NCBI RefSeq assembly: GCF_003704095.1
Contig: NW_020844837.1
Coordinates: forward strand, 248,001 to 312,000
DNA: 64,000 bases
Direction of reading: 5' to 3'
Source of the DNA: Pocillopora damicornis
Taxonomy: Eukaryota
This document shows, one piece after another, positions 42,734 through 46,839 of the stretch. The notes under the pieces are model-generated. The model saw only the letters and a list, made by a program, of their open reading frames with translations, did not search any database and was not told the origin of the DNA. The number at the start of each line of letters is the position of its first letter. The first letter of the stretch is position 1. Made by a program: the position numbers and the translations under genes.

Positions 42734-45700
42734 ATCTTCGTCGTAATTTCGGCAAAGTCCCGTCGTGTCGAGTGGCATCTCTCAACTCAACAGTGGTCTT
42801 TCCATGCGCGCCTCCACTCGGATCACCTCCGGCCGAGGTCACATGGTATAAAATTGGCGAGTCATCCTCCATATTAAGAAATAAAGGGCGCAGGCGAGTA
42901 CGCAAGGGACAGTTAGTAATCAAAGGTGGCCAGGTGGGGGACTCGGGCGAGTATCGGTGTGTTGCACAGAATATTGCCAGAAGACGTGAGGGCCCGGTGA
43001 TTAAATTAGTTGTCGGAGGTATGTTGGTTTTTAAGGTCATTTGTTGAAAAATCAACCTACCCACTTGCTGATTTCCCTAATCAATTATTGCGTTCCTTAC
43101 GGAATTAGAAAACGTCTCCAGTGCTCTTTGCAACAAAGACGAGCCGCCATGCATCAATCAGTCTTTGCCAGACTGTGAAACAAAAAGAAATGAGACATTC
43201 AAATTTGGTAAGGATTGTAAGACACTTCTTTAAAAAGTTTGAAAAAGGTGACTAATTATTCTTCCATTATTTTTATTCTCTTCCCTAATGTCTTTGGACT
43301 TCTTATTGCACTTGTTGGTTCGATATAATTTTCTATCTCAATTCTTCTTGAAATTCAGAACCAACGTTATTGGTTGGATCGCAAGATGCTTTTTTCACAG
43401 TAGATCTGTTCAACATCTCAAGTCGGAGACCCATCAAAGCTGAGAACGTCTTTTCATTTGACTTTTCTTGGGAACCTGGCCAGATTTTCTGGTCGGACAG
43501 GAAAAGCATAAAGAAGCTATCCCTACATGATGGTATAAGTAAGGACACGCCCTTTCTTTTTGATGACGGCGACTCAGTGGAGGGACTGTTTGTTCATTGG
43601 GTGGCTAAAAAGTTGTACTGGACTGATGGACAACATAATGCGATTTATGTTGGAGATCCAAAAAGCGGAGTCAAAGTCAAAGTCATCGACAATGGCCCTG
43701 ATTCACCGACTTTGAAATCAGTTGTTGTTAGTCACTCGGAAAGGTGAGTATGTTAAAATCCCTGAAAGATTTTAACAACAATTGCTATTGCGGCAGCCTC
43801 CCTCTGATTAAATTACACGATTTTCCTTCGCTTATTTCGCAAGACAGCGGTTGTTTATTTATGTTTTCCTTTGGAATTTTGCGCGGGAAATTGGCGCGCG
43901 ACCTGCGCATGCTCGACGTTTGACTGCTGTGTTTAATTATGCTGTATTACCTCACCTGGGAGCCTACTTAAAATTTTGTAGTTGTTGAAATTTCCTCAGT
44001 AAGTGCACACCAGAACGCATGAAAATACGATTTAAAAATGCAACTTCATTATCATTAATTTTGTCTTTTCTCTCTAAACATACGATTGTTCTTTTAAAGT
44101 TACATATATTGGACGAGCTGGGCAGCAACACCAATAATCGAGCGAGCTAGACTTGACGGTAGCGACCGGGAAGTATTTATCAACAATAGTGTATATCTTC
44201 CAAACGCCTTGGCAATTAACGAAGCAGATAAAAAACTTTACTTGGCGGGAACGGATGCGAATAACTACGGAATTATTGAAGCTGTTTCATTAGACGGGTT
44301 AAACCGCACCGTGATTTTCAACCGAACTGGATTCATCCCAACTGCTTTGGACTTTTACCAAGACTTTTTGTATTGGTCGGACTCAAAGAAGAATGCAGTA
44401 CTACGCGTTTCTCACCAGGGAGGAGAGGGTACAGTTCTGATCAATGGATTGAGAAACCCAATAGGAGTAAAGATTTTCCATAACCGCAAAGAAAGTTCGG
44501 GTAAGAAATAAGAGTAGGGAAATGGAAATTGCTTTTATATACGTTATTCTTTTCTCTCCATTGCCCTTCTCTATAGTATTATCTCCATTCAAGGTAAAAT
44601 ACTTACATGCTTCTTGAAAAATTATTGGCAGTTTCCCTTTGCGAGAATTTTATCATTCTACTTTTCCTTTTATCGCCTAAACCCGCAGAAAATAGTGGAG
44701 ATCAAATGGATAAACAATGGATTGTAAAAGAGAGAGTTCTTTTTTTGTGCAGTAAAAATTGACTGAACTGAACACCAAACAGGAATGGTTAGTTTAGGAA
44801 ACATAGGTCAGTTCCATTAAGCACGATTCATCATCTTAATGTTTATCGACTGTTACCTCACAACCGTCTCTTCTGGGGAAATCGTTTAAGTTATTCTTCA
44901 TCACTTCTTTAACTCTGCTTGATTTTATTTTAAAAGTCCGTGTCTCCAGGATTTTTTCTCTTTTTCAGGTTATATTTGTTATATAATTTTTTATTTCTTT
45001 AAATCCTAGCCACAGATCCATGTCTTAAAGACAATGGCCGATGTGATCAATTGTGTCTCTATCTGCCGTTCCGTGAACGACACAGATGTCTCTGTGAAGA
45101 GAACTTTTTCTTGAGTGAAAATGGAAAACATTGCAGCGAACACCGTCCCAGCGAAGGTAAAGTCTTACAGCCTGTTTTCTAGTGACTGTGTCATCAAGCA
45201 CTAGCACAGCTTTAAACCATCCGACATGCGCAAAGTGATCAATTCTTTGCCACCCGCGTGCCAATTTCAAAGGATTCTAACAGCAACCTAGCTTTTACAA
45301 TGTTGGCACATGCGCAGACATCTGGCTGCTGTGTTCATCGCAGTTAACCTCTCTCTGAGTGGACTGAGTCGCTGTAAGAGGAAAGTATATTGCTCAACAA
45401 CTCATCATAATGACTTTGCTAGTGCAAGATGATGTTTAAAGAAGTAGTTTTACATTCTTTTGGAGTGCTTTCAATGAATATTCGATAAAATCGAAGGGTT
45501 ATGACATTTTTGTAGGAGTTACCGAATCAACACCAACGCCAACCAGTGTGGCCCACTCCTTCCAGACAGGAATACTATCGAGTGTCATCTTACTACTGGT
45601 GGTAGTGGGGATAGTATACTGTGTGGTTCGCGTCATCAAAAAAGGCTGTCCGTGTCAAAGACCTCAAGACCTACCGCGCATACCCAGACAGTCGACAAAT

Positions 45701-46839
45701 CCTGATGACAGAACTGAACAGGGTGAAGATTTACTCGAAATTACCGACCAAACTGACCTTGAAAATGCAGGCTCACAGCCACCTAAAGAGTCGTCAAATC
45801 TTATTGGTCGAGACTACAGTCGTGAGCCGTCAGGGTCAGTTGCAGCATGCGAGGATTCATCACAAACCGTAAGTAATAGTTAAAACAATCTACTTTATGC
45901 TTCTTGGTGGTTTTAAAAGTACCTACTGTAGTCAGAATTCCTTCTCTTTGCGCCTGTAGGATGAATGTAATCGGGACAAGGAGTAGGGGTGGGGTGCGGA
46001 CAAAGTGAAGAGAAGAGAGCAGAAAAAGGGGGGCTTAGGGAAGACCCCATTTTCACCATTTTTGCATCTCTCGGCTTCCATAAGGCTTGTCCATCCCCTT
46101 CATTCTAACACGTTATCGTTGGCTATCTCTCTTTCCCTTTGTTTCAAATTCAGGAAATAGGGATCGAACATCCTCACTTACCTCTCGCCCCCTTCATCTG
46201 GTTTCACCAGAAATGCCACCTATACACACTCTCCCCCAATTCTAACACTCTTTTAAGCCTTTAAAGAGGCTTCTGTGTCCTCACACAGTTGTCATTCCAT
46301 CAGTTGGAGCAAGCATTCTTAATTGATAGTATTCGTTTAATACACATTTATTTCATAACATATCGAGCACCTTGTGGTAATTTCCTCGTAGCTCGAGACG
46401 CGGAGAAAGGCATAAGAAGGTTATTGTGTTGAGATAAATTCTTCTTTTCTTGGGTTAAATTTTTTCTTCCTCACTCGGGGAACTAGAGAGAGGCGATGCC
46501 TACGGGTTCCTTTCACACGTATATAAAATCGACGCTCTCTTACGCGCAAAAATTATACAAAGGCAAAGGAGGTACCCATGAGTCCCTCAGGATTTCAGGA
46601 CGAATGCTTTCTCTATTACCTTTGTCGACATAAACCCACACTTCGAGATCGCTCTGTCAGATCAATCATCTGATTTTCTGTCATACTGCCGATCGTTTTT
46701 CATATCTTGCTTACTTATTCGCTGTTTTGTTAACTTTTAGTCACCCAAAAGTTTGGTGGTGTACTTTGAACAACATGGTGGCGTGGCAATTCTAGGAGAT
46801 GATGCCCAACTACACCATCATTCTTCTCCTCAGAGTTAA
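42734..46839 (+). CDS. 5'-truncated type I membrane receptor: Ig (UNC5/Robo Ig2-like)-Cys linker-YWTD beta-propeller-EGF-TM-cytoplasmic tail (LRP-like)
   Basis: Exons 42734-43018 (Ig), 43109-43207, 43359-43743 and 44100-44500 (IFWSD, LYWTD, IYWTS, LYWSD), 45010-45156 (EGF: DPCLKDNGRCDQLC..HRCLCEENFFLSENGKHC), 45516-45868 (TM ILSSVILLLVVVGIVYCVV), probable last exon 46741-46839. All GT-AG and phase-consistent; the last exon is less certain. Confidence 0.82.

Follow-up and report, generated by a model that had tools for sequence, protein, structure and literature searches.

An UNC5-type immunoglobulin pair on an LRP-type propeller: an apparently undescribed surface receptor of stony corals

The receptors closest to the gene described here are UNC5, Robo, which has five immunoglobulin (Ig) and three FN3 domains, and the LDL-receptor/LRP family, in whose cytoplasmic tails NPxY or PPPSPxS motifs are typical. 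UNC5 carries a cytoplasmic ZU5-UPA-death domain region, and the source for this describes cnidarian UNC5 only in its canonical form (PMC10084454). Worm UNC-5 binds heparin at the Ig1-Ig2 boundary and Robo binds it on the same surface (PMC10871540), and Netrin-1 binds UNC5B at the Ig1-Ig2 hinge and Ig2 (PMC13759497). Here, we analyse a gene of Pocillopora damicornis located in a window of 64,000 nucleotides (assembly GCF_003704095.1, contig NW_020844837.1, positions 248,001 to 312,000); unless stated otherwise, coordinates are those of this window. An earlier sequence-only reading of positions 42734 to 46839 had proposed an undescribed, exon-shuffled co-receptor in which a single UNC5/Robo-type Ig domain is fused to an LRP-type propeller-EGF unit. 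We find that the receptor gene is real and expressed, and that it encodes an apparently undescribed combination of two known receptor modules.

RNA evidence was taken from contigs of four runs (from 24 listed), which belong to four separate studies. All four contain the exon joints 42333>42734, 43018>43109, 43207>43359, 43743>44100 and 45868>46741, and the joint from propeller to EGF uses the acceptor 45010 in three runs and 45016 in one. A single contig (X1, 3,482 nt) spans the Ig2 exon through the 3' untranslated region (UTR), the exon borders are all GT-AG, and the reading frame is open throughout. The proposed splicing of the Ig exon, in phase, to propeller, EGF, transmembrane (TM) segment and tail is thus borne out. 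What had to be corrected is the assumption of a straight joint: a direct connection of Ig2 to the propeller is listed in none of the four runs, and a previously overlooked 99-nt exon (43109-43207) intervenes in each of them. Since the joints 43018>43109 and 43207>43359 are found in RNA, the Ig exon reaches the propeller via this exon. Gene models of Stylophora (X2) and Porites do not have it.

The N-terminus had been reported as missing, and the gene start does lie in an assembly gap (42137-42236), but it is recoverable via the exon end at 42237-42333 and the full-length relatives. The gap conceals at least 2.0 kb, as unspliced contigs extend 1,652 and 2,022 bases upstream of 42237. The exon end matches residues 86-119 of the relative P0002 at 94%, and residues 1-85 of P0002, which represent the gene start, have no match anywhere in the genome assembly G000. 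A misjoin across the gap was considered as the source of the fusion and is irrelevant, because the fused exons are all located downstream of the gap and are joined in RNA.

Full-length relatives of 698-757 amino acids exhibit the whole arrangement: a signal peptide, Ig1, Ig2, a cysteine linker, one YWTD propeller, an EGF module, a Ser/Thr stalk, a TM helix and a tail of 92-113 residues. There are two Ig domains instead of the one reported, the exon 42734-43018 itself being real. The single propeller with its EGF module is confirmed by Pfam, by RNA and by a predicted model with six blades, and the TM segment with juxtamembrane KKGCPC is present in exon 45516-45868. The closest named relatives of the window gene are proteins of Pocillopora verrucosa and P. 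meandrina, and the architecture is carried by Pocillopora verrucosa, Stylophora pistillata, Oculina patagonica, Orbicella faveolata and Porites evermanni. If Porites is a member of the other main stony-coral clade, as is generally held, the fusion is older than the split of the stony corals. Databases name these relatives 'LRP5-like', 'LDLR1-like', 'UNC5B-like' or 'uncharacterized'. No characterised family matches the receptor over its full length, and the architecture is not described in the literature searched, mostly without subscription journals and with the supplements of coral transcriptome and proteome papers outside the search. This is in agreement with the earlier proposal of an undescribed UNC5 x LRP-type receptor.

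A protein search returned 15 matches, six of which combine Ig and YWTD families. The others are four LRP-like proteins from fish, three proteins resembling Robo, a propeller fragment that belongs to the same gene and a YWTD protein without relation to it. The 15 matches of a HMMER scan with Ig1 consist of 13 unnamed exon fragments of the receptor family, one repeat artefact and one snail protein. Two divergent fragments, P0061 and P0066, retain the canonical cysteine and pass the cut-off of the Pfam UNC5-Ig1 family (PF25609). Searches that depend on shared 5-mers or yield unnamed fragments found no Acropora, anemone or bilaterian protein with the Ig pair and propeller, a result that does not establish absence from these groups. 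In the ESM Atlas, the nearest clusters are of the cueball and pro-EGF types (score about 0.8, a lead only) and list no Ig family, and a query with the Ig pair returned only generic Ig clusters. A full-length AlphaFold model built from six sequences was discarded, as only the propeller folded (mean pLDDT 41). Pfam scans of the full-length proteins found neither TSP1 nor FN3, with two Ig domains only and the transcript otherwise fully accounted for.

Orbicella-type corals also possess a paralogue without the propeller (Ig1-Ig2-linker-EGF-TM; model P0025), whose linker and EGF exons are about 600 bases apart on genomic contig L035 (1516-3415); the start of the Ig2 exon on this contig appears eroded. 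Two transcript-derived proteins, P0002 and P0004, end soon after the Ig pair or the linker by frameshift or intron read-through and represent secreted Ig-only forms or artefacts. The linker exon is absent, shortened or doubled among the relatives. Six of ten linkers beat at least 197 of 200 shuffles in comparison with LDL-A, a weak resemblance, and PF00057 (LDL-A) was not found in the full-length proteins up to E 2; on such weak evidence, the linker may be a decayed LDL-A repeat.

Judged by profiles and predicted structure, the Ig pair is UNC5-type and not Robo-type. This follows from Ig1, as Ig2 alone cannot decide; the UNC5 half of the former 'UNC5/Robo' label therefore stands, and a Robo origin is not supported by Ig1. 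An Ig1 profile, which takes in the fragments P0061 and P0066 with their merely putative propeller link, gave seven PDB matches at E <0.001, all of them UNC5 and none Robo; a narrow Ig1 profile had been tried and had no PDB match. With a single Orbicella-type sequence (Ig1 and the start of Ig2), UNC5B, UNC5A and UNC5D rank first (E 5e-11 to 2.5e-8) with the hinge in common, and the predicted Ig1-Ig2 model (pLDDT 74) has UNC5 at Foldseek ranks 1-5. The canonical coral UNC5 (G000:C1098), whose open reading frames were read by eye as Ig, Ig, TSP1, TM, ZU5 and death domain, is the best of 24 Ig loci in tblastn (58 bits vs at most 48.5), and the receptor's Ig1 and Ig2 are separate phase-1 exons with a border identical to that of this gene.

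Several observations weigh against an UNC5 origin. VIA-align places UNC-5 first for the Ig1-Ig2 model, but tied with DCC, MuSK and Robo (Z 12.9-12.4). Full-length proteins match Pfam UNC5-Ig1 with 15.7-26.7 bits, under the cut-off of 27, and neogenin-type Ig1 scores as high (23.9). Insect Robo Ig2 scores (56.6 and 51.8 bits) exceed that of coral UNC5 Ig2 (48.4), and an Ig2 tree of 47 rows gives no resolution between UNC5 and Robo. In addition, the B-strand cysteine of Ig1 is replaced by W, and the F-strand glycan site of Ig2 is absent, in 9/9 proteins. As a separate observation, a reading of the canonical coral UNC5 (G000:C1098:11000-22300) by eye suggests that one TSP1 and an FN3-like exon precede the membrane segment.

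The propeller matches LRP6, LRP2 and LRP4, and the best single-domain scores are 209 bits for LRP6 E1, 183 for LRP4, 178 each for ApoER2 and LDLR, 163 for LRP2 and 107 for nidogen. Separate trees had been suggested along with the sequence-only reading. In that of the propeller, built from the second exon only with 41 rows, the seven chimeras group as a single clade (93/97) without a supported sister; the Ig2 tree is the one given above. Neither structure scores nor the propeller tree identified the donor gene, be it LRP4, LRP5/6 or another LRP. The mid-propeller intron is common to 20 of the 22 coral LRP propeller exons examined, and the propeller-EGF unit is flanked by phase-1 introns, a pattern that fits exon shuffling; we consider it very likely that the receptor arose by phase-1 exon shuffling. 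Elsewhere in the genome (G000:C37:369600-377800), four neogenin-type Ig exons are followed by a long Ser/Thr stalk and more Ig exons, an apparent other Ig chimera with no kinase in the stretch read. The snail protein mentioned above (P0073, Physella acuta XP_059142317) is a 'hemicentin-like' protein of 1,515 amino acids, whose Ig domains include five UNC5-type Ig1 modules. With these examples, reuse of Ig and YWTD modules seems common, and domain shuffling seems frequent in this coral genome.

The Ig pair is strikingly basic. Its net charge is +18 to +35 in 9/9 proteins (9-18 per 100 residues), compared with +2 in coral UNC5, and lies outside the range of 17 control coral Ig exons (-10 to +7 per 100 residues). 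When the heparin-binding residues of worm UNC-5 (PMC10871540) are mapped, R17 is kept in 6/9 receptors, N18 as N or K in 8/9 and R190, placed by an ungapped register, in 9/9; R70 and K111 of the patch are outside the mapped set. The strong charge together with these retained residues makes glycan binding likely, and the Ig pair would, with somewhat better than even probability, bind heparan sulfate or similar sulfated glycans. Against this speaks K191, which is E or V in all nine.

A link to netrin is more doubtful. Of seven mappable UNC5B netrin contacts, the Orbicella-type sequence retains two, N154 and R175. The acidic contacts D156, E158, E163 and D167 are all lost there, which weighs against netrin binding; as the canonical coral UNC5 by eye seems to lack them too, this loss is not diagnostic. 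The coral genome has a netrin (G000:C3167), and this netrin has lost R353/R364 as well as the RRxR heparin motif that vertebrate netrin-1 carries in LE2 (coral LE2 at L074:5195-5386), a further adverse point, by which a heparin bridge is weakened. As a speculation, the charge change of the receptor tip and the motif loss of coral netrin could be complementary. A complex prediction of Ig pair and coral netrin, the latter entered as two exon pieces, scored 0.40 vs 0.01 for the best control (three runs 0.00/0.40/0.42), with contacts that agree in at least 11% and a partner pLDDT of at least 76. Among solved pairs, 51 of 78 attained this mark, as against 2 of 108 among mismatched pairs; less favourably, scores of 0.60 or under comprise only 5 of the 78 solved pairs and all 4 passing mismatches. 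Because a netrin-UNC5B structure exists, the pass may show mere likeness, and the predicted complex lends weak support to netrin binding. A role of the receptor in netrin signalling is accordingly possible, but somewhat doubtful. Unlikely, in our judgement, is the stronger version of a third kind of netrin receptor, in which a reversed-charge UNC5 tip, polymorphic under selection, would bind the heparin-motif-less coral netrin on top of an LRP-type propeller and signal by the 18-residue C-terminal motif. A weak 'UNC5C' match reported as upregulated in Euphyllia testes (PMC7579821) could not be tied to the receptor gene.

For the tail, absence of LRP motifs had been claimed, and NPxY and PPPSP indeed occur in none of eight tails checked; it is, however, not featureless. 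The last 18 residues are identical at 13-14 of 18 positions between Pocillopora and four distant relatives, vs 46-59% for the rest of the tail, and contain 10 of the 22 invariant tail columns; this comparison left out the Porites and P0025 models, in which the stretch is missing. As this is the best conserved part of the tail, it suggests that the motif recruits a cytoplasmic partner. Pfam finds no ZU5, UPA or death domain in the tails of the full-length proteins, and a receptor without these domains, NPxY and PPPSP would not be able to signal in the manner of UNC5 or LRP5/6. Four of 8 tails contain an ExxxL[LI] of acidic dileucine type, by resemblance only, and YxxPhi is absent from 7/8. The genome assembly G000 holds no second copy of the C-terminal-motif exon or the TM exon. 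The motif was also considered as a RHIM amyloid motif, whose core tetrad is given as V/I-Q-V/I-G in PMC12119088; this was rejected, as there is no Q at the needed place and PF12721 finds nothing.

Implementing these facts, we propose, at about even probability, an exon-shuffled single-pass surface protein whose UNC5-type Ig1-Ig2 pair, carried by a single propeller-EGF unit of LRP type, would bind heparan sulfate or similar sulfated glycans by its very basic surface, and possibly netrin. It would act as a co-receptor, a role which we infer, or as a decoy without UNC5 death-domain output; the C-terminal motif would recruit a partner in the cytoplasm, and the propeller would have a secondary role. 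The existence of the propeller-less paralogue speaks for this reading.

Other functions have to be weighed against this one. The extreme and conserved positive charge, the lost acidic netrin contacts and the restriction of named carriers so far to stony corals would suit an adhesion or matrix tether without any netrin link, in which the Ig pair holds matrix of acidic or sulfated character, such as mesoglea, mucus or the acid-rich proteins of the skeleton, while laminin or another matrix ligand is bound by the propeller. We regard this as rather unlikely, since the receptor preserves the hinge motif of UNC5 better than coral UNC5 itself does, the propeller scores far lower with nidogen than with LRP6, and the receptor accessions appear in no paper found. 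Still less probable is an uptake or Wnt-pathway derivative of an LRP, with the propeller as the working part and the Ig pair in place of LDL-A repeats. LRP6 E1 as the best single-propeller PDB match, the weakly LDL-A-like linker and the dileucine-like motif in half of the tails point that way, but the LRP tail motifs are missing, only one propeller is present, a paralogue dispenses with it, in Pocillopora the YWTD motifs have decayed further (3 pattern hits vs 5), and the propeller tree gives no LRP sister.

A different line of evidence concerns variation. In the Pocillopora cluster, Ig1+Ig2 have 27/195 non-singleton variable sites vs 20/414 in propeller, EGF and tail (Fisher p 2e-4), an approximately threefold excess, which also appears when measured against divergence to Stylophora (p 1.5e-4); the sample consists of the window and 14 listed members (among 29 in the cluster, 15 listed), with species mixed or unnamed. 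Two Ig types recombine in mosaics, and two Ig2 versions occur inside single unspliced runs. Tandem duplication is not favoured as the cause of the two types: P0023 and P0005, both models from P. meandrina, are consistent with being parts of a single gene, and the depth of contigs, which does not equal copy number, is not doubled at the receptor. Balancing selection on the Ig tip is thus a lead, and the receptor might serve in polymorphic recognition of self/non-self, gametes or microbes, comparable to the Alr allorecognition receptors of Hydractinia, which have many alleles and allele-specific binding. We consider this improbable. The sample is small and mixed, contigs are possibly chimeric, sites are in linkage, and a copy missing from the assembly would produce a like pattern through conversion, as would introgression; about two types rather than many alleles are seen, no ectodomain is better conserved between genera than Ig1 (57-78%), and the near absence of YxxPhi from the tails does not fit either.

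Table 1. Parts of the receptor gene and the adjoining assembly gap in the window
Feature	Position	Strand	Evidence
Assembly gap, 100 N; hides the exon of the signal peptide and the leading two thirds of the Ig1 exon	42137..42236		unspliced contigs
Ig1 exon, 3' end (UNC5-type Ig1), phase-1 donor	42237..42333	+	joint to 42734 in 4/4 runs
Ig2 exon (I-set), phase 1-1, basic hinge YLRRNF	42734..43018	+	Pfam Ig_3 E 1.4e-10, RNA
Cysteine linker exon, 33 aa, 99 nt, phase 1-1	43109..43207	+	RNA joints
YWTD propeller, first half	43359..43743	+	RNA, fold/profile matches
YWTD propeller, second half	44100..44500	+	Ldl_recept_b E 1.4e-13, RNA
EGF module	45010..45156	+	RNA; alternative acceptor 45016
Ser/Thr stalk, TM helix, juxtamembrane CPC (KKGCPC), acidic tail	45516..45868	+	RNA
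Last coding exon, conserved C-terminal motif (EQHGGV..GDDA..HHH), stop at 46839	46741..46839	+	RNA
3' UTR, reaching at least 48400	46840..48400	+	RNA

Around the receptor gene, the minus strand at 1210-7999 carries exons for Fz, Ig, kringle and tyrosine kinase domains, which we take to be a ROR/MuSK-type receptor kinase gene. A leucine-rich repeat (LRR) gene, presumably LRRC40-like, is located on the plus strand at 29831-41926; the gap at 42137-42236 also swallows its end, the last exon being lost there (loose RNA ends at 41926). A single-exon F-box/LRR gene (48493-49548, plus strand) begins about 100 bases past the last RNA-covered position of the receptor 3' UTR. High-copy repeats were observed at 40000-40820, 43860-43900 and 47735-47952. 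The last of these is an indel and not an intron, because it is skipped in unspliced contigs as well; the insertion is absent from several other individuals.

From a biological point of view, the ligand-binding tip of UNC5 appears to have found a second use on a stalk of the LDL-receptor type, which stony corals as distant as Porites and Pocillopora have retained. The gene provides a defined protein with which the roles of netrin and heparan sulfate can be probed in animals that have no axon tracts, and it is a candidate for a polymorphic coral surface receptor. The surprise is moderate, as neither module is new and this genome seems to shuffle domains frequently.

By its domain composition, the coral receptor is outside the membership of UNC5, Robo and LRP. 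Like UNC5 receptors (UNC5A-D and C. elegans UNC-5; PDB 6ool, 4v2a, 5ftt, 8edc/8edi), it has an Ig1-Ig2 pair with the hinge motif and a C-F disulfide pattern specific to UNC5; it also keeps some residues of the heparin patch and the exon borders of coral UNC5, but has no TSP1, ZU5, UPA or death domain, has gained a propeller-EGF unit, carries Trp in place of the Ig1 B-strand Cys together with four new Cys, and is far more basic. With the LDL-receptor family (LRP5/6, LRP4, LRP2, LDLR) it has in common the six-bladed propeller with EGF, the mid-propeller intron and the single TM helix; it differs in its one propeller, the N-terminal Ig pair and the lack of recognisable LDL-A repeats, NPxY and PPPSP. 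Robo is as close as UNC5 with respect to Ig2, whereas the coral Ig1 is not Robo-like, and the coral receptor has two Ig domains and no FN3. Cueball and pro-EGF, whose ESM Atlas clusters lie near the receptor, are likewise single-pass YWTD-EGF proteins, but none of these clusters has an Ig family listed.

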